From Nitrosopumilus sp. (lineage in GTDB: Archaea; Thermoproteota; Nitrososphaeria; Nitrososphaerales; Nitrosopumilaceae), in NCBI GenBank assembly GCA_965214775.1, contig OZ243974.1, forward strand, positions 2,016,001-2,080,000: a stretch of DNA of 64,000 nt. The letters run 5' to 3'. Shown here piece by piece: positions 4,233 through 44,244 of this stretch. The notes below the pieces were generated by a model. It made no database searches, was not told where the DNA came from, and saw nothing but the letters and a program-made list of their open reading frames with translations. The position numbers were made by a program, and so were the translations under genes. The stretch's first letter is position 1; every line of letters begins with the position of its first letter.

Positions 4233-4353
4233 CAGTCTTCCCAGAAGTAACCCGGAAAACGGCTCTGGATTTGAGGCAAACCAAATTATGACGCCTGCAG
4301 ATTCACTCGCCGCCATCTGCACAGTCATGAATCACGTACTTCTGGGAAGACTG
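4233..4353. mobile_element. 121-bp MITE with ISH3-type ends
   Basis: TIR CAGTCTTCCCAGAAGTA / TACTTCTGGGAAGACTG shared with the element at 5229-8096. Confidence 0.9.
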
Positions 4354-4991: not shown

Positions 4992-5213
4992 ATGTTATCT
5001 GACAAAGAAAAACTGGAATGGTTTTCACATTTTACAAAATCCCTGTCTGCAATTAAATTAATGTGTACTGATTCTGTATATTCTAAAGAGGACATACTCA
5101 CTCAGATTGTCTCCTTGGAACAAGATCTAAAATCTATTGATTCAGGATATCTGCCTTCTGGTCCCAAACAGACTGTACAATGGCCAAAAAATGAAACCAG
5201 CACTCAAAATTAA
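4992..5213 (+). CDS. Small hypothetical protein
   Basis: 73-aa ATG ORF directly downstream of the secreted protein. Confidence 0.5.
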   Translation: MLSDKEKLEWFSHFTKSLSAIKLMCTDSVYSKEDILTQIVSLEQDLKSIDSGYLPSGPKQTVQWPKNETSTQN

Positions 5214-5521
5214 ACCAATATCTAGCATCAGTCTTCCCAGAAGTAACCCAAAATAGCCAATTTTGACCGAAACAGATCAATTAGGGCAGTCCTAGAAGGT
5301 ACTCATGCCTTACCAAAAGAACCAACTGAGACGTGATGCTCTTAACAACCCGCGCATATATCAAGATATCCTAAAGACCAGTCTTCCCATCTATGTTAAA
5401 ACGCCCGGGCCCTTTAGCGGCTGCGGATTGTGTCTCTCTGATCCACGCCTAGTTTAATATGGGCCGCTTTATAGCTTACGCTGGGTACAGGGGGGATCCG
5501 TTCCCTGCATGCGGCTGCGTG

Positions 5522-6652
5522 TTACTTGTCTGTTTTCTCCCTGACCTCGGGTGGCATCTTGGATGCTGCAGCTGCTGCTGCTGCGGCCTCTGCCCGGGCC
5601 AGCTTGAGTTTGTACGTCTTGGGATCGTGTCCGGAGTACGGCGTCCTTGTCACGAGCATGGACCATACGATCCTGATCATCTTGGTTGCCACGTGCGTCC
5701 TGGCCACCATGGGCCTTGCGCTGTTCCTCTTCTTGGATCTTGCATGGATCCTTCCCATCCTCTCGTCGTATATGGCGGCCGTCCGCACAGTCTGTAGCAT
5801 CGCCCAGTTGCACCTGCGGTTGGATGTCTTTCTCATTTTGCCGTGGTACTCCCTGTCGCCGGACTGGTGAACCGTAGGACACATGCCGAACCACGCAACA
5901 AGCTTGCCCGGGGTCTTGAACCTGGCAATGTCCCCGATCTCAGATACCAGCAGCATGGCCGTAAACGAGTCGATTCCCGGAATGCTCATCAGGATCCTCG
6001 CATCCTCGCTGACGCTGGCCTGCGCCGCTATCCTTGTCTCGATGTCCGCGATCTCCTCTGTGATCTGCCTGACCCTTCTGGCATGCACGCCGAGAACCGC
6101 ATCATCGTTTGGGTCGCCAAGATTCAGGGCGAACAGCTGCCCGAGTCCCTTGTTGGAGTACACGTGCGACGAGTCGATCCTCTCGTCATACCTGTCCAGG
6201 AGGCTGTGGATCTGGTTGATCACGGCCGTCCTGTCCTGCACGAGGCCGATCCTGCAGCGCATCAGCTCCCTGACGCTCCGGAGTTCGGGCGGTGCCACGT
6301 AGCACTCGGGAACCATTCCGGCCCTCAGGGCGTTTGCAAGCTTTCTTGCGTCGATCGGGTCCGTCTTTACGTCCATGTCGGAGATTATCCGCATCTTGTA
6401 GGTGTTGGCAAGCTTGATTGGTATTCCCGCGGACTCGAATGCCTCGTAGGTCTTGAGCCACATGTTGCCCGTGGACTCGCAGACGGCCTGGCAGTTCTTT
6501 CCGCCGTAACTGAGCTTTGCCTTCCTGGCAAACATGCCTGCCTCTCTGGATGTGTTCTCGTATGACGTCTCTTCCAGGATCCTCTTTTTGTCGTCCATAA
6601 TGCACGCTACGCATTTTCTCTTTCCAATGTCTATTCCTATGCTGTATTGCAT
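5522..6652 (-). CDS. IS110 DEDD recombinase/transposase
   Basis: IGIDIGK, CESTG, KTDPIDA (RuvC-like DEDD); IPGI, GMCPTVHQSG (Tnp serine); ATG at 6652. Confidence 0.95.
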   Translation of the reverse strand: MQYSIGIDIGKRKCVACIMDDKKRILEETSYENTSREAGMFARKAKLSYGGKNCQAVCESTGNMWLKTYEAFESAGIPIKLANTYKMRIISDMDVKTDPIDARKLANALRAGMVPECYVAPPELRSVRELMRCRIGLVQDRTAVINQIHSLLDRYDERIDSSHVYSNKGLGQLFALNLGDPNDDAVLGVHARRVRQITEEIADIETRIAAQASVSEDARILMSIPGIDSFTAMLLVSEIGDIARFKTPGKLVAWFGMCPTVHQSGDREYHGKMRKTSNRRCNWAMLQTVRTAAIYDERMGRIHARSKKRNSARPMVARTHVATKMIRIVWSMLVTRTPYSGHDPKTYKLKLARAEAAAAAAAASKMPPEVREKTDK

Positions 6653-6674
6653 CTTTTCTCGCTTTCCTCTTTTT

Positions 6675-6797
6675 GGTGGATCAGAGGCTGCACACATCTA
6701 TCAGCACGCCGTGGTGCACGAACACTGCAGCTCGGAATTACCGCATTCAGAAGTCAGCGCGCGGGGCGCATGGGAAGACAGCGGTTGATCCACACCA
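6675..6797 (-). ncRNA. Predicted bridge RNA of IS110-A
   Basis: Outer stem GUGGAUCA/UGAUCCAC enclosing loop 1 (guides GUCUUCCCA, ACUUCUG = target halves) and loop 2 (GUGUUCG, AUAGAUG = donor-junction halves). Confidence 0.85.
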
Positions 6798-6950
6798 CCA
6801 CCGCTACGGGCCCGGGCGTTTTTAACCCGTGTTCAGAAGTACCACGTCAAATTATCCCCGGCTCGAAACAATTCAAATAATGATGCCTGCATATCCGCAT
6901 GTCGTTTCTTGCACCTCCACGAGTCGGTTACTTCTGGGAAGACTGAAGAC

Positions 6951-8077
6951 CGTTGGCGACGGCATGGCCCCGTGCATCAAGACATCAGACAAGCACAACG
7001 CCATCTATGCTACAGACGACTTTATCAGGTGCCTGACGCGCGCGGCCGTATCCAACAGGCAGGTGGCAGGCTGCACGATGTCTGCACGTGACGTGCCAGC
7101 GGCTCCTGGAATGCCCCGCAATCCCACCGACGAGTGGATCCGCAGCGTCGCCATAAGATCCAAGCCCGGCCAGATCCAAGGCTGCCTTGCAGAAACCGTG
7201 GGCCGGCAGCTGAACCAGCTGAGGGATATGGGGATGATCACAAATGGCCAAAAGACGGATGCGGCAATAGACATGCACCTGATACCGCGCTATGACAAAA
7301 AGTACGGTAGTGAGCTTGTACGCTCCAAGAAGAAGAGCGGGACGATAGTCTGAGCGTTACATCACCATACAGTGCATCGTAAAGCACTGCCGCCTTGTGC
7401 TGGGAGCACTGCACATGCCGGCCCTTGAGGATACGGCCGATTTCGTGCGTAAAATCATCGATTCTGCACGCCGCACAGGCGCCGATCTTGGAGTCGTGAT
7501 GCTGGACCGCGAGTTCTTTTCGGCCGCAGTCATCTCCAAGCTGGATGCGGCCGGTGTCAGATGTATCATACCGTGCAAGAACACGGATGCAGTCGTTGCC
7601 ACCCTCAACGAGAATGGCGACGTGAAAAAAAGAAGGGAGGTCAAATCGGTCATATCCGGCACCACAAAGTCTGCACGGTACACGATGGTCATCACAAAGA
7701 GAAGGAAGAAGAGATCAGGCAAGACCGATGTGGAGAAGCTGCCGGCGCACGAGCGGCTCATCGGATTTGCAACCAACGTGCCCGGAATAGATCCGAACGA
7801 GTACAGCCGCAGGTGGGGGATCGAGACTGGATACAGGATGATAGAGAACGCAAGGGTCAGGACCCACAGCAAGAGCCCGGTCGTAAGGATGCTGTACTTT
7901 GTGTACTCGGCTGCGGTCTTCAACGCGTGGGTCATGGCAAACGCGATGATGAGAAACTTTACGGGGATCGTTACAGAGGATCCCCTGATCACCCAGCAGT
8001 GCCTCAATGACGTGATCAAGCGTGGTATGTCGGACTATAGGATGCTGCCCCAACCCCCTCCACCGGTGCCTCCATGA
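6951..8077 (+). pseudogene. ISH3 transposase, interrupted by insertion and frameshift/stop near 7350
   Basis: Two ORF pieces (..7353; 7397-8077) homologous to intact copies at 48946 and 54093. Confidence 0.85.
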
Positions 8078-8150
8078 GTTACTTCTGGGAAGACTGGGCA
8101 AGCGAAAACCTTCAAATAATTTTTAATCCTAGTATGTTTAACAGGTTTCA

Positions 8151-14225: not shown

Positions 14226-14332
14226 CTTCATTCAAAGATATTCCGCCAAGATCAACTGGCTGAAATTTTGTAACCATATCAGTAGACGCTATATGAAATC
14301 TTATCTGTATCCTGTGATATACTATTACTGTT

Positions 14333-14450
14333 GGGCCTGAGAGTCGATCGGAACTTACCATGTACAAGGGTGTTCAGTAGACTGACTCGTAACAGCAGGC
14401 GGAAAGCAATGTACCGCGCAGAAGACGGTGAATGGAAGATTCCGCCCGGA
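14333..14450 (+). ncRNA. Predicted bridge RNA of IS110-B
   Basis: GAGUC/GACUC stem enclosing AUCGGAACU (14347-55) and UCAGUAG (14374-80); GCGGAA/UUCCGC stem enclosing donor-like AUGGAAGA. Confidence 0.78.
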
Positions 14451-14482
14451 TCAGGCATTTTGATCAGAAAGGAGGTGATAAC

Positions 14483-15562
14483 ATGATCAGCGTAGGAATA
14501 GACGTACACAAAAAGACATGCGTTGCAGCAGTAAAGGATGACTCTGGCAAGCTGCTAGAGCGATCCAAGTTTGAGAACAGCGTTTTGGCAACAACGAATT
14601 TTGCAACATATCTCAAGGAACAATACTGCGGACAGCTGCCAATAAAGGCAGTATGCGAGTCCACTGCCAACTACTGGATTATCGTACATGACACGCTTGA
14701 GGACTGCGGGATAGACACCGTGCTGGTGCATCCGGCAAAGGTCAAGGTGATAGCGCACGCCAAGATAAAGGACGACCGCGTAGATGCAAATATACTTGCC
14801 GACCTGCTCAGAGCAGACATGCTGCCAGAGTCGTTTGTGCCTGACAAGCACTACAGGGACCTCAGAATGCTGGGCAGGACCAGAACCGGCAAGACGGCAG
14901 AAGCCACCAGATGCAAGAACAAGATACACGCCATACTTGCAAAGTATGACTATGACCTGCCCACGCACAGCACGTTTACGATTTCTGCCATACAGCACAT
15001 CCAAGACGGGATAAAAATGTCAGAGATTGACGCGGCAACTGTGAAGATGTACCTTGATGACATCAAGAGGATACAGGATCAGATAAGGGATCTGGAGCGC
15101 AGCATTGCCTCTGTATCCGAAAGCGATACGAGGGCCAAGACGATTATGACCATGCCTGGAATAAGCCATGTCATTGCACTGACGATAATCTCTGAGATAG
15201 TCGATGTCAAGAGGTTTGCCACTCCAGAGAAGCTCGTCTCGTATGCAGGGCTGACTCCCTCGCGCAGGGACAGCGCAGACAGACACAAAGGAGGCGGCAT
15301 AACAAAGCAGGGATCCGTGTGGCTGCGCCAGGCCATGGTCAACTCGGCCACAGTCGCAGTACGAAACGACCCAAGGCTTGGTTCGATATATGAAAGGATA
15401 GGAAAGAGACGTGGATGGCAAAAGGCAAAGATTGCAGTTGCAAGACACATGCTGGAGATAATCTGGCACATGCTGACAACCGAAGAGGAGTACCGCACTC
15501 AGAACAAGGCTCTCACGCAGAGAAAGTATAAGAGGATGCATCGCATAGCAACATTGTCCTGA
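14483..15562 (+). CDS. IS110 DEDD recombinase/transposase
   Basis: SD GGAGGTGA; VGIDVHK, CESTA, KDDRVDA, MPGI, AGLTPSRRDS. Confidence 0.95.
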   Translation: MISVGIDVHKKTCVAAVKDDSGKLLERSKFENSVLATTNFATYLKEQYCGQLPIKAVCESTANYWIIVHDTLEDCGIDTVLVHPAKVKVIAHAKIKDDRVDANILADLLRADMLPESFVPDKHYRDLRMLGRTRTGKTAEATRCKNKIHAILAKYDYDLPTHSTFTISAIQHIQDGIKMSEIDAATVKMYLDDIKRIQDQIRDLERSIASVSESDTRAKTIMTMPGISHVIALTIISEIVDVKRFATPEKLVSYAGLTPSRRDSADRHKGGGITKQGSVWLRQAMVNSATVAVRNDPRLGSIYERIGKRRGWQKAKIAVARHMLEIIWHMLTTEEEYRTQNKALTQRKYKRMHRIATLS

Positions 15563-15627
15563 TTCGGAACATCACGCTGGCAAGGGTCCACGGTAGGATT
15601 AGGTACGATTTCATATGGGAGTTCCTA

Positions 15628-16721
15628 TACTGACGATCATTGAAAATTTCGCCTGATTACACGTCTTGTGAAGGTTTATAGATCTCCGCCATGGCCATTC
15701 TGACATGAACAAGACGAAAATCCTCACGGATGCCATGCGTGTGGAAAAGGATAACAGGGTTTATACCAGAATCCTGGCGGTGCGCTCCGTACTGCTTGGC
15801 AACACCACTGCACAGACCGCAGAGATTGCCGACGTGACACAGCGTACCGTACAGATATGGGTCGAGAGGTTTGAGCTTGACGGCGTTGACGGTCTCCGTG
15901 ACTCCCACAACAGGGGCAAAAAGCCAAAGGTCCCAGTCGGCAGGATAAAAAAGATCGCCATGAGGCTGCGCAGGATGGAAAAGCTCACCCCGAAGAAGAT
16001 GCGCAACTGGGTGCACCGCAAACTGCATGTCACATACAGCGTTGGAAGCATCAGAAGAATCCTGCGCACGATGGGATTCTCGCTAAAGACGTCAACCACC
16101 AAGCTGGCAAATGCTGCCGACGCAAAGGCGGTAAGACGGTGGCAAAGGGAGGCAAAAGACACGATTAGGCTTGCAAAAAGGCGCGGATTCAGGATAACCG
16201 TACAGGACGAGTCGATATTCGTCAGTACGGGAAGGGACGGCAAAAAGTTCTGGTCGCCAGTGGGGGACAGGATCGAGGTGCAACGATCCGGCAGAAGGGA
16301 GCGCGTCGTGGTATACGGAACGGTTGCAGACAACGGAACCAGGCTGATGCGCACATACGACAAGTTCAACAGCATAAACTTTGTGCGTTATCTCAAGCAG
16401 GCGCACAAAAAGTGGGGAAAGGTTCTGATTGTGATGGACAACGCAGCACAGCATAAGACCGAAAGGGTCCGCAAATACCTGGAGAAAAATCCTGACGTTA
16501 TCCTGCTGTACCTGCCGGTAGCTAGGCCGGAGCTGAGCGCCATAGAGCCAATCTGGAAGGATGCCAAGTACATGCTGGTCACATCTGCCTTTTACGATTC
16601 GGTAGATCACCTCAAAAGGGATGTCTCGGAATACTTTAGGACGTGTTCCATCAAGGTTGACATCTACAAATATCTTGAGCGCCGCGTGTAAGGGAGGCGA
16701 AATTTTCAATGATCGTCAGTA
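15628..16721 (+). mobile_element. IS630-family element (complete; transposase 15705-16691)
   Basis: 26-bp TIR TACTGACGATCATTGAAAATTTCGCC, TA flanks; QDES, MDNA..H, PELSAIE.IW. Confidence 0.93.
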
Positions 16722-16723
16722 TA

Positions 16724-16883
16724 GTCCACCTCCCGTCCTTGCTTGTTATCTCGTGCAGGAACGCGGTTCCCGCCGGCAGTTCCTTCCTTCCTTTCATACG
16801 TCTGTATGGGACTGGCAGGATCTTGGATCCTTTGGTTGAAGAAAATCGTCCCTTTTGTGATCAATTGGTAGCCGAGGATACTA
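16724..16883 (-). mobile_element. 5' fragment of IS630 element (22454 family)
   Basis: Homologous to 23440-23588, ends ...GAGGATACTA followed by CG. Confidence 0.85.
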
Positions 16884-17039
16884 CGGAATCTCCCATTCAC
16901 CGCCTGCGCGGCACGTTGCTTTCCGCCTGCTACTGCGAGTCAGCCTACTGAGCACCCTTGTACATGGCAAGTTCCGATCGACTCTCAGGCCCAACAGTAA
17001 TGTTGGATCACAGGATACGGATAAGATTTCATATAGCGT
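16884..17039 (-). mobile_element. Orphan IS110-B left end with bridge RNA (inverted second copy)
   Basis: Reverse complement closely matches 14286-14444; flank CTACTG = CAGTAG target half. Confidence 0.88.
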
Positions 17040-17282
17040 CTACTGAGATGGGCGATTATTTGAGATAGACACGGCGTACGGTTGTAACAGGTCGGGCTCT
17101 GGAAGCTCAGGCGTGAATCTTGCAATCCCGGAGGTCACTAGGGCAGCACCTCCAACCAGCAGGCTGATTTGGAAGAATCACAACACATAAAGATCGTTGG
17201 ATCTGCCTTTCCGGTATTGATCGGGGATCCTAGCATTACGGACGTGGATTGGAACAATCCCGACGTGATCCGCCTGTTTGAA

Positions 17283-17405
17283 CACATGAAGTCCAGGATG
17301 GAGGCAGTTGAAAGAGAAAACCTGCACATGAAGTCCAGGATGGAGGCAGTTGAAAGAGAAAACCTGCACATGAAGTCCAGGATGGAGGCAGTTGAAAGAG
17401 AAAAC
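17283..17405 (+). repeat. 3 x 42-bp in-frame tandem repeat (HMKSRMEAVERENL)
   Basis: Direct reading; N-terminal coiled coil of the IS66 transposase. Confidence 0.93.
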
Positions 17406-17414
17406 GAACAGCTA

Positions 17415-19602
17415 TAGCAATGATCAGAAGTCTTTGAGCCAAAACGGGATCATTCGAAAAGTATATGGATCGCCTAACCGGCGCAATGGCATGGCAAAAG
17501 AAACAGACAAAAGCCTGTCAGAGGCCATGCGCAAAGAAAAGGATGTCAAAGTCTACAAGAAGATCATGGCGCTGATGTTTGTGCTAGAAGACGACGTGGG
17601 CGTGCCTGAGACTGCAAGAAGGGTCCGGTGCAGTGAGAATTCCGTGCGCAGCCGGCCGGCGAGGTTTTCGGAGGACGGCATGGACTGCCTCCGGGATCTT
17701 CCCCGTTCCGGATGCAGGCCAAAGGTGGACAGAGAAAATATTGCCGCCATAATGGACCTGTTCACTGCATGCAAAAGTACCGATGTTATGACGGTACGCG
17801 ATGACATAAGGGATGCCACCGGGACAGAATACAGCACAGGACATGTCCGGAGAATGATGCGCCAGCACGGCCTGTCGCGCCGCAAGGTGCAAAACGTGCA
17901 TGTCAACCATGCCACCCCAAGCTCCGTATACTCGTGGCAACGGTATCTTGAAAACGTGCGGATTCCGTGCCTGAAAAGAGAGGGTTTTACGCTGGTGTCA
18001 TCTGATGAGGCGTTCTTCGTGCAGGGCGCATACGACAGATACGTGTGGGGTCCGGTCGGCACCAGAAGCGTGGCATCATATTCGGTGGACCACACAAAGG
18101 TGGCCGTGTTTGGAAGCATCACAGAAGACGGCAGAAGGCTGTTCAGGACGTTTACGGGATCGTTTAGGTCAGTGCAGTTCATACAATGTCTGGAGGCGTT
18201 GCGCGCCAAGTTTGGCAAGGTTGCCGTCTTTTGCGACAGGTGGAGTGTGCACAGATCTATTGACATCGCAGAATATCTGGCAGGTCATCCCGATATCAGG
18301 CTGATAATGATCCCGAAGGGATCGCCGTACCTCAATATCGTGGAAGAATGCTGGAACCTGGGCAAGCCTGTCGTTTTCAGGGGGATAGTGTACAGGAAAA
18401 TCAGCGAGCTGCGGCACACCATATCCGAGTACTACAGGACGGTGTCGTTTGCCCACCTTAGCATGTTCTATTGTACGAAAATTAGGTCGCACTAATTTGA
18501 GGAGGATTGCAGGGGATTACTTTAGGCTTTACCGATCAAGAAAACCGATGGTTGTAAGGCTCGAGGCAAAGCAGATCAGATACGCAGTGACGCAATGTGC
18601 AGGGGGACGAAAGCCCTCGGAGGTGGCCCCGGAGATAGGCGTCACGACAAGGCACGTCCAGCGGATGTATGCCCGGTTCAGGAAGACAGGCGACACGCAC
18701 CACGTGCCGCTCAAGCCGGGAAGGAAAAAGAGCGCCCCGGTTCCCGACGGGGACGTGCGCGCAGTCCTGGAGGAGTACAAACACAGTGCAGCAGGGGTGG
18801 TTCATACGGCCAAGAGGCTGCGAAGGCAACTCGATATAAGCTACTACGAGGTATACAGGATAATGAAAGAAAACGGGCTGGTGACGCCATCGGCTGCAAA
18901 ATCAATGCCCAGAAAATACGTCCGCTTTGAGCGCAAATACTCCAATGCCATGTGGCACGTGGACTGGCATACCATGAAGGATCCGCGCTTTGCAGGGCTC
19001 AATTTGGTCACGTTCCTAGACGACTCGTCCAGGTGCGTGACTGGTGCGGGCCTGTTCAGGGAGGCCACCTCAGAAAACGTCGTGGCGGTCCTGCGGCAGG
19101 CCGTGGCCCAGTTCGGCGCGCCTGCCACCATACTCTCAGACAACGGCAAGTGCTTTGTCGGGGCGCGCTCGGATCCGAAGAAGAAGAAGAGTCCGCCCAA
19201 GGGCGGATGGAGGCCCACTGCCTTTGAGGAGGAGCTGCTCAACTGCGAAATCGGGCTGATAAACTCCAGGCCGTATCACCCGCAGACCAATGGCAAACTG
19301 GAGAGATTCCACAGGAGCATCGAGGAGGAGATATGGAACCACAAGAGTCTGTCTGCATACATCGACTACTATAACGAGGACAGGCTGCACTGGTCGCTTG
19401 ACATCGACAACTACGAGACGCCGCTGCGGGCATTCTCCGACAGGGAGGCCACAGAAGCGATCAGGAAAAGCAACCCAAGATGGATGGAGGAGGACATTGG
19501 TGATGGTGCGACATAATTTTCATATAATACACCCACCTTAGCATGTACAAGTACATTTACAGATCGCCGGTCAAAGCCCTCAATTACTTGTGACCGTTGC
19601 TA
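17415..19602 (+). mobile_element. IS630-family element (transposase ~17491-18466) interrupted at its 3' end by IS481
   Basis: TIR TAGCAA.G.TCA, TA flanks; SDEA, CDRWSVH, SPYLNIVE. Confidence 0.87.
18467..19531 (+). mobile_element. IS481-family element (transposase 18548-19516)
   Basis: WHVD, LSDNG, YHPQTNGKLERFH; imperfect 26-bp TIR; 15-bp TSD CCCACCTTAGCATGT. Confidence 0.92.
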
Positions 19603-44123: not shown

Positions 44124-44244
44124 CAATCTTCCCAGAAGTTCCCAGAAAAACGGCTCCACATTTGACACAATTCAGATTATGATGCCTGCAGATCCGCATG
44201 CAGCCGTCTGCACTATCATGAGTCAGTTACATCTGTGAAGGCTG
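44124..44244. mobile_element. Degenerate 121-bp ISH3-type MITE
   Basis: CAATCTTCCCAGAAGT ... ACATCTGTGAAGGCTG; interior similar to 4233-4353. Confidence 0.82.

Follow-up and report, generated by a model that had tools for sequence, protein, structure and literature searches.

Bridge or seek RNAs guide a young class of programmable recombination systems, and the characterised examples in those parts of the cited papers that we draw on throughout are all bacterial (PMC11208160, PMC11208158, PMC11187229). Here, we describe an insertion sequence (IS), designated IS110-A, in a 64,000-nucleotide stretch of a Nitrosopumilus sp. genome (assembly GCA_965214775.1, contig OZ243974.1, positions 2,016,001 to 2,080,000; hereafter the window), which is very probably a bridge-RNA (seekRNA)-guided element of the IS110/IS1111 superfamily in a Nitrososphaerales-type archaeon. 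The element would encode an RNA of about 118 nt upstream of its recombinase gene, whose product carries the DEDD and serine residues of this family; a closing helix encloses the two internal loops of this RNA. For the first loop, the predicted partners are the two strands of the target (ACTTC-TG-GGAAGAC in element orientation), a site 11 nt into the inverted repeat that an ISH3-like IS shares with its miniature inverted-repeat transposable elements (MITEs); the second would pair likewise with the joined ends of the excised circle, ATAGA-TG-AACAC. Long subterminal inverted repeats flank the donor bases, and the recombinase would exchange strands at the shared TG core (CA on the + strand), so that the element enters without a target duplication. 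We infer transcription of the RNA, possibly driven by a TATA-like box in the left subterminal repeat, its binding to the recombinase, and continued mobility of the element.

The evidence consists of the correspondence between guides and flanking DNA in 18 elements, a fold accompanied by covariation, a natural case of retargeting within one genome, and the signature of purifying selection on the recombinase genes.

Insertion site, guides and predicted RNA of IS110-A

The junctions can be read directly. Positions 5379-5389 are CAGTCTTCCCA, TCTATG begins at 5390, 6826-6835 are CCCGTGTTCA, and 6836-6841 are GAAGTA; immediately after 5389 the element thus opens with TCTATGTTAAAACGCCCGGGCCC, and its other end, ...GGGCCCGGGCGTTTTTAACCCGTGTTCA, stops at 6835 before GAAGTA. 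A preliminary description of this DNA had proposed a complete IS110 element whose removal restores a perfect inverted-repeat end, and re-reading the junctions bears this out: deletion of 5390-6835 yields CAGTCTTCCCAGAAGTA, a 17-mer identical to the intact copy at 5229. Because CA is present on both sides (5388-89 and 6834-35, + strand), the boundary is ambiguous by 2 nt. The same core dinucleotide, TG (CA), is found at both ends, there is no target duplication, and removal restores the site exactly. The 14-mer target GTCTTCCCAGAAGT has six exact matches in the window (4235+, 4338-, 5231+, 6930-, 8081- and 27911-; shuffles expect 0.01), and these are the six unoccupied perfect targets that had been named before; one further site, at 44126, has a single mismatch. 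In the 2.83-Mb genome there are 84 perfect unoccupied targets of this type, hereafter A-type, mostly arranged as inverted pairs about 103 bp apart.

Guides are described here in element orientation, that is, on the minus strand, where the left flank reads ...GGTACTTC, followed by the core TG and the left end AACACGG; the right end stops with ATAGA and is followed by the right flank, (TG)GGAAGACTG. Four guides can be read upstream of the gene, and all four include the core dinucleotide (Table 1). The matches claimed earlier were recovered in full, both for the target loop (9/9 and 7/7 including the core, re-read at 6784-6741) and for the donor loop against the predicted circle junction (6/7 and 7/7, re-read at 6731-6687). 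The earlier assignment of these matches to a "left" and a "right" target half applies to the + strand; in element orientation the 9-nt guide addresses the right-end flank. The 3' target guide would pair with the target's bottom strand. In the donor loop the sole mismatch is a guide G opposite the core T, and the predicted circle junction, ...CCCGTGTT-CA-TCTATG... on the + strand, fits this loop. The A-type target contains a small palindrome, CTTC-CCA-GAAG (5381-5389 plus 6836-6840, and all intact target copies), for which reason both target guides share CUUC. Across the whole genome the target guide pair in its given spacing occurs only in IS110-A and in a truncated copy of it.

These guides lie within the 182-nt non-coding leader of the recombinase gene. 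The target loop (6784-6741) reads CCGC-U-GUCUUCCCA-U-GCGC(CCCGC)GCGC-UG-ACUUCUG-AAU-GCGG, with one A separating it from the closing helix, and a 9-nt linker leads to the donor loop (6731-6687), GCUGCA-GUGUUCG-U-GCAC(CACGGC)GUGC-UG-AUAGAUG-UG-UGCAGC. When the RNA is bounded at 6672-6797, limits taken from the conserved closing helix, its minimum free energy (MFE) structure is exactly the proposed architecture (-42.9 kcal/mol, z = -1.37), and the same holds in three of the four sequences folded (IS110-A and two of three relatives). Among 16 sequences and 18 base pairs, 89.2% of the cells in the four inner helices are paired, compared with at most 53.5% when the partner strand is slid; seven pairs have changed on both sides, and none of 500 shuffles reaches the covariation score. 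The closing helix is not counted on the MAFFT alignment, in which two clades are one column out of register; by per-sequence duplex folding it forms in 16 of 16 sequences, from unrelated sequences in four clades, and at most 3 of 200 shuffles are as good in nine AT-rich sequences (1-23 of 200 in the other seven). The bounded fold and the covariation thus substantiate the two loops of the preliminary description, of which the fold of the whole leader had missed the one for the target.

A second possible partner for the closing helix was noticed in the right end of the element, where 5436-5446 hold GTGGATCAGAG (minus strand), an 11-nt perfect complement of CUCUGAUCCAC at 6676-6686. This pairing is longer than the 8-bp closing helix formed with the left-end partner, and it might form instead of that helix when transcripts are read-through or circle-derived.

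The UUAAAAA in the left subterminal repeat may serve as an archaeal TATA box for transcription of the RNA from the integrated copy; its place inside the repeat would allow the RNA to be made from that copy and not from the circle junction only. AT-rich relatives have GUAAAAG at a similar distance.

The recombinase matches PF01548 (4.3e-26) and PF02371 (3.4e-21), both past their cut-offs, and NF033542, "IS110 family RNA-guided transposase", with 232.5 bits against a cut-off of 140. In a phmmer comparison with the PDB it finds ISCro4 (1.8e-6) and IS621 (4.5e-6). Its residues D8, E59, D98, D101 and S264, in the numbering of the 376-aa protein, align with D11, E60, D102, D105 and S241 of IS621, which were read from the 8wt6 chain as 13, 62, 104, 107 and 243, the chain numbering being offset by 2 from the native one; D102 and S241 are named as catalytic in IS621 (PMC11208158). 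The DEDD residues and the serine of the Tnp domain are kept, as had been stated.

Table 1. Features of IS110-A and its surroundings, in positions of the window
Feature	Positions	Strand	Remarks
IS110-A	5390..6835	minus	1446 bp; alternative boundary 5388-6833; from junction reading; 100% self-match
Recombinase gene	5522..6652	minus	376 aa; ATG at 6652, stop 5522-5524; RuvC-like DEDD domain and Tnp domain with SG
Predicted bridge RNA core	6676..6793	minus	118 nt; closing helix, target-binding loop and donor-binding loop
Closing helix, 5' strand	6786..6793	minus	GUGGAUCA
Closing helix, 3' strand	6676..6683	minus	UGAUCCAC; preceded by CUC
Target-binding loop	6741..6784	minus	stem CCGC/GCGG; internal hairpin GCGC(CCCGC)GCGC
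5' target guide	6771..6779	minus	GUCUUCCCA; reverse complement of TGGGAAGAC, the core and flank at the right end; 9/9
3' target guide	6748..6754	minus	ACUUCUG; identical to left-end flank and core (ACTTCTG), 7/7
Donor-binding loop	6687..6731	minus	stem GCUGC(A)/(U)GCAGC; internal hairpin GCAC(CACGGC)GUGC
5' donor guide	6719..6725	minus	GUGUUCG; complements core and left-end start TGAACAC; 6/7 Watson-Crick and one G.T
3' donor guide	6695..6701	minus	AUAGAUG; identical to right-end tip ATAGA and core TG, 7/7
Left-end subterminal inverted repeat	6808..6826	none	19 nt; UUAAAAA within it lies about 26 nt upstream of the closing helix
Right-end subterminal inverted repeat	5395..5412	none	18 nt; matches the left repeat at 18 positions, one indel
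Non-coding right end of IS110-A	5390..5521	minus	132 nt
Outer 11 nt of the split MITE inverted repeat	5379..5389	plus	CAGTCTTCCCA
Remainder of the 121-bp MITE	6836..6945	plus	intact right inverted repeat at 6929-6945
ISH3-like IS hosting the MITE	5229..8096	plus	1.3 kb minus insert; 5-bp duplication AAGAC at 5374-5378 and 6946-6950

The surroundings of IS110-A form a nested series. The MITE, of which 121 bp are left between 5379 and 6945, has the same layout as the MITE at 4233-4353 and has 54 BLAST matches in the genome. It is flanked by the AAGAC duplication within an IS that has terminal repeats of 17-21 bp and uninterrupted copies elsewhere in the genome (for example G000:C1:1783274-1784574). 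A target duplication of 5 bp is typical of ISH3. The 401-aa transposase of the IS, taken from the full-length copy L054, has its best NCBIfam match in NF033541 (6.7e-36; 123.9 bits against a curated cut-off of 225), and PF01609 is matched as well; the label "ISH3-like" is used because the former match falls below its cut-off. The insertion inside the inverted repeat of a MITE, as first described, is confirmed, and its ISH3 name is to be understood as that of the best match. Joints between 5373 and 6946 and between 5250 and 6912, as in uninterrupted forms of the IS and the MITE, occur in contigs of four public runs and are probably other copies of the two.

Natural retargeting within the genome and among relatives

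A second full copy, B (L002, G000:C1:1982891-1984335), is 91% identical to IS110-A and has an intact gene of 377 aa. The 118-nt RNAs of A and B differ at eight positions, of which five fall among the 16 target-guide bases, none among the 14 donor-guide bases and three among the 88 others (target guides against all other RNA positions, Fisher p = 0.001). The element ends are unchanged, as is the donor loop. The guides of copy B are GUAUAACCA (5') and ACAUAUG (3'), and its flanks differ accordingly from those of IS110-A: the left flank, ...GACACATA before the core TG (ACATA-TG), matches the 3' guide at 7/7 positions, and the right flank, GTTACGTG after TG (TG-GTTAC), matches the 5' guide at 6/9. 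Copy B occupies a site made up of the 11 nt (TAACCATATGT) with which another IS110-family element begins at its left end, and lies 5-7 nt inside that tip; the host element encodes 378 aa and has a long downstream non-coding region, and TAACCATATGT starts six copies. The copy B target, like that of IS110-A, includes a palindrome (CATATG). Between the intact A and B genes, whose proteins are 88% identical, the ratio of nonsynonymous to synonymous substitution rates (dN/dS) is 0.26 at a dS of 0.23, which, as a comparison of two gene sequences, shows purifying selection on the recombinase.

Three partial copies are also present in the genome. A truncated left part (L003) has A-type guides and abuts GGGTTACTTC before TG, with only the left flank preserved, and thus represents an independent insertion in the same repeat. 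Two solo right-end fragments of about 100 nt, L004 (G000:C1:254726-254830) and L005 (G000:C1:1631196-1631294), are B-type; both abut TGGTTAC as copy B does, and their internal truncation points are 6 nt apart. They look like deletion remnants from which the rest of the element and the host IS were removed.

A scan for relatives, limited to one genome per species, found 15 loci with 41-79% protein identity, all but one of them in Nitrososphaerales, Nitrosopumilaceae or "Thaumarchaeota" metagenome-assembled genomes (MAGs). In 14 of 18 elements the 3' target guide is identical to the left flank and core (7/7), and in the other four it agrees with them at 6/7 positions. In the 14 elements for which both flanks are available, guides match their cognate flanks at 13.0 of 16 positions on average and non-cognate flanks at 8.2; none of 20000 permutations of guides and flanks reaches the observed sum, and within eight AT-rich elements, whose targets are alike, the permutation still gives p ~0.0002. 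On the donor side, the 5' guide changes together with the start of the left end in four clades (GUGUU/AACAC, UGUAU/ATACA, UAUC/GATA); little variation is seen in the 3' donor guide GAUAGAUG, invariant in 15 of 17 relatives, or in the right-end tip ATAGA. The subterminal repeats of the AT-rich relatives are 9-10 bp long.

The target repeat of IS110-A is also used by L003 and by two loci of another genome, L046 and L049, which carry A-type guides. The left flank of L046, GTTACTTC before TG, matches at 7/7; that of L049, AACTTT before TG, matches at 6/7 and its right flank at 8/9, these flanks being degraded. Both gene starts are damaged, the lesions being one inserted base and a third-codon stop. 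The expectation that further copies lie in ISH3 repeats is thus borne out for these three A-type loci, with the degraded flanks of L049 and the left flank only of L046, and does not extend to copy B, which sits elsewhere with changed guides. A relative in a Nitrosopumilus-type MAG (L047) lies between (TTG)n and (TGTGGTTG)n runs, with guides GUUGUUG (7/7) and ACCCACACA (8/9); judged by these flanks, it uses a microsatellite-like target.

IS110-type elements are numerous in this genome. There are 34 matches to the IS110 DEDD domain in 2.83 Mb, 27 of them past the cut-off, including a group of open frames of about 142 aa that cover only the first 71 profile positions, and at least three IS110-type families are present, including two that serve as each other's targets or neighbours. 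Within the window, a second IS110-family element at about 14250-15750 (+), with PF01548 at 14492-14947, belongs to an unrelated 376-aa group (about 33% identical). It has three near-identical copies in the genome and 10-bp subterminal repeats (ATATGAAATC); upstream, its GGGUGUUCC-GUAGAC repeats the right-end tip and the left-end start on the same strand, and its flank TTNGTAACCATAT resembles the left tip of the third IS110-type family.

Weighing the explanations

Several observations weigh against a functional, RNA-guided IS110-A. The whole 182-nt leader, when folded, does not yield the target loop and is no better than shuffles (z = 0.09); the margin of the bounded RNA over its shuffles is modest; and the bounded MFE of copy B is a different fold. 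One hairpin, helix 2, is paired in 68.8% of cells, because the longer hairpin of the AT-rich clade is aligned one column off, and the shuffle controls overstate significance because the relatives are related sequences. A scan of 5000-7300 with Rfam 15 at E <= 1 gave no match. The 5' target guides of relatives agree with their flanks at only 5-8 of 9 bases and often end in a G opposite the core T, the right flank of L046 is unrelated to its guide (2/9), and in the AT-rich L040 and L042 the tip ATAGA is followed by AG, not TG, with TG kept at the left junction; this AG may have arisen by mutation after insertion, or A may be tolerated as the first base of the core. The perfect 14-mer target predicted for copy B is absent from the genome. 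Among the listed sequencing runs no RNA run contains this stretch. The contigs of the four runs contain neither a circle junction nor the empty-MITE joint 5389/6836, and contigs cannot show rare forms. Finally, one full copy per guide type beside 84 empty perfect targets speaks for low or no current activity.

This last point bears on the most serious alternative, which we consider unlikely though well worth keeping in view: that IS110-A is a bridge-RNA transposon by descent and is now a dormant or dead copy, with guides that can still be read and no movement in the present genome. The 84 perfect unoccupied targets stand against one full and one truncated A-type copy, the damaged gene starts and degraded flanks of L046 and L049 show decay in another genome, and the missing circle junction, within the limits of contigs, is in keeping with it. 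Excision of IS621 is naturally rare (PMC13626964), so that a low copy number does not by itself indicate a dead element, though the pattern would fit one. Both full copies, however, have intact genes with a dN/dS of 0.26 and intact catalytic residues, the donor loop is unchanged over a dS of 0.23, which points to continued constraint on the RNA, and the retargeting of copy B, whose flanks match, implies that there was activity once the A and B lineages had split.

A narrower role for the RNA, in which only the first loop guides, as in a seekRNA in the strict sense, the protein recognises the ends through the subterminal repeats and the matches of the second loop are a by-product, appears improbable. 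It would account for subterminal repeats of 18/19 bp, far longer than the 2-3 bp of the IS110 group (PMC11208160); end recognition may differ in the IS1111 family (PMC11187229); and the 5' donor guide of relatives matches only about 4-6 bases, its core part not being complementary. Yet the 3' donor guide equals the right-end tip plus core at 7/7 positions, the 5' donor guide tracks the left-end start through four clades, none of the 14 donor-guide bases has changed between A and B, whose ends are likewise unchanged, and the second loop shares the pseudo-symmetric architecture of the first, as in IS621 (PMC11208158). We strongly disfavour, as very improbable, the reading of the leader as an ordinary structured 5' untranslated region or regulatory RNA whose matches arose by chance or target capture. 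The leader as a whole is indeed no more stable than shuffles, and the shared CTTC/GAAG palindrome of the half-sites means that the two target matches are not fully independent; but four separate matches of 7-9 nt stand at pseudo-symmetric positions of two loops, guides change with flanks in copy B and across 14-18 relatives, the stems covary, and the protein family is known to use such RNAs (PMC11208160, PMC11208158). An RNA-guided element remains the reading that we prefer, and it is reasonable, from its sequence features, to regard IS110-A as the "ready-to-test" programmable recombinase that it was called in the preliminary description. Copies A and B are matched by nature: their intact recombinases are 88% identical, their donor loops are the same, their target loops differ, and each copy sits in its own site. 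Features that may be of use are a core, TG/CA, that differs, a compact RNA of about 118 nt with defined ends, and a host promoter logic other than the bacterial junction promoter.

Comparison with known systems

The polarity of IS110-A was compared with two described layouts. In IS621 the RNA is encoded by the left end, to which the left target is adjacent, and the 5' guide corresponds to the left-end flank (PMC11208160, PMC11208158); in the IS110 group generally, the RNA is upstream, the bottom-strand guide comes first, and subterminal repeats are absent or 2-3 bp long (PMC11208160, PMC11187229). In seekRNAs of the IS1111 family the top-strand complement comes first and the RNA is downstream (PMC11187229), and the subterminal repeats are 7-17 bp, usually 11-13 bp. 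In IS110-A the top-strand complement comes first, which is the IS1111 order and the reverse of that in IS621 in both loops, and this is so in 18 of 18 elements of the clade; the subterminal repeats are also of the IS1111 kind. Both loops (6687-6784), however, lie upstream of the ATG at 6652, as in the narrow IS110 group and not downstream as in IS1111, whereas the guide order and the 2-3 bp repeat limit of the narrow IS110 group do not apply. As read from these features, IS110-A mixes two described layouts, IS1111 guide order and IS1111-like repeats with an upstream RNA. The chemistry need not differ, because the RNA-DNA complex is physically the same with both DNAs rotated: the element would end up inverted relative to its guides with the base-pairing geometry of IS621. 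The known bridge-RNA mechanism is unchanged by IS110-A, which is a known kind of system in a mixed layout of two described groups; what natural covariation adds is that the position of the RNA gene and the way in which target and donor are oriented towards it can be uncoupled.

With IS621, IS110-A shares both protein domains and the catalytic D/E/D/D and S residues, an upstream RNA whose target loop precedes the donor loop, loops built as stem, long guide (9 nt), hairpin and shorter guide (7 nt), the core in all four guides, the lack of a target duplication, and a repeated sequence as target. It differs from IS621 in its reversed guide order relative to the element, in its core (CT in IS621, TG or CA in IS110-A) and in its 18/19-bp subterminal repeats, compared with 2-3 bp in the IS110 group. 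A covarying closing helix surrounds both loops in IS110-A, and none was found described for IS621 in the portions of PMC11208160 and PMC11208158 covered here. The protein similarity is weak (phmmer E 4.5e-6), and the host is archaeal, which excludes a sigma-70 junction promoter.

The IS1111 seekRNA elements ISEc11, ISKpn4 and ISPa11 resemble IS110-A in having subterminal repeats with short asymmetric terminal extensions, and natural retargeting between close relatives is common to both, ISEc11/ISXne4 being the analogue of A/B (PMC11187229). They differ in their downstream RNA, in a recombinase of 330-350 aa in the family, compared with 376 aa, and in terminal extensions past the core of 7 and 3 nt, compared with 7 and 5 nt in IS110-A (PMC11187229); IS110-A, moreover, has a clear second loop for the donor. 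Exceptions to the IS1111 layout have been named, ISMtsp17 with an upstream non-coding region (NCR) and ISHvo10 and ISAcp5 with long NCRs on both sides, and in the main text of PMC11187229 no guide analysis of these was found. A literature search found no described thaumarchaeal or archaeal bridge RNA, the supplements of PMC11208160 and PMC11187229, which may list archaeal or upstream-NCR IS1111 cases, being outside that search.

Within the plasmid collection, ISHvo10 of Haloferax volcanii pHV4 is the named element most closely related to IS110-A (32% identity over 90% of the protein, tblastn E 1e-39), termed "more diverged" (PMC11187229). ISHvo10 and ISHvo9 are archaeal, like IS110-A, with non-coding regions of about 234 and 235 nt on both sides and a 14-bp subterminal repeat, and the upstream region of ISHvo10 holds a stretch identical to the right-end tip. 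Mapped by eye, the two elements yield no two-loop RNA of the IS110-A layout, and their left flanks have no shared motif. The two (L055, pHV4 15910-19284) are about 90% identical and adjoin a TnpB gene; two short blocks differ between their upstream NCRs (CCC-TGC-GGAG...CA-AGC-AUGGG in one, ATC and ATT in the other), and they may be another natural retargeting pair. If ISMtsp17 and ISHvo10 share the top-strand-first order with an upstream RNA, IS110-A belongs to a recognised side-branch of IS1111; otherwise the combination is new. It is conceivable, and we put it forward tentatively, that Nitrososphaerales-type archaea, perhaps with ISHvo10-like elements, hold a third architectural class that would combine IS1111 polarity, long repeats, an upstream self-closed three-way RNA, a TATA-like box in the left repeat, and targeting of IS tips with switches between unrelated IS families by a few guide substitutions.

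In its choice of site, IS110-A has a bacterial counterpart. As reportedly described by Partridge & Hall 2003, IS4321/IS5075 of the IS1111 family enter the terminal inverted repeats of other transposons at a fixed position. IS110-A likewise enters the ISH3-like repeat 11 nt from its tip, and B-type elements enter the left tip of another element, so that in ammonia-oxidiser-type archaea, too, insertion sequences parasitise the ends of other insertion sequences. IS4321/IS5075 are bacterial and target Tn21-family repeats, and in this they differ from IS110-A.

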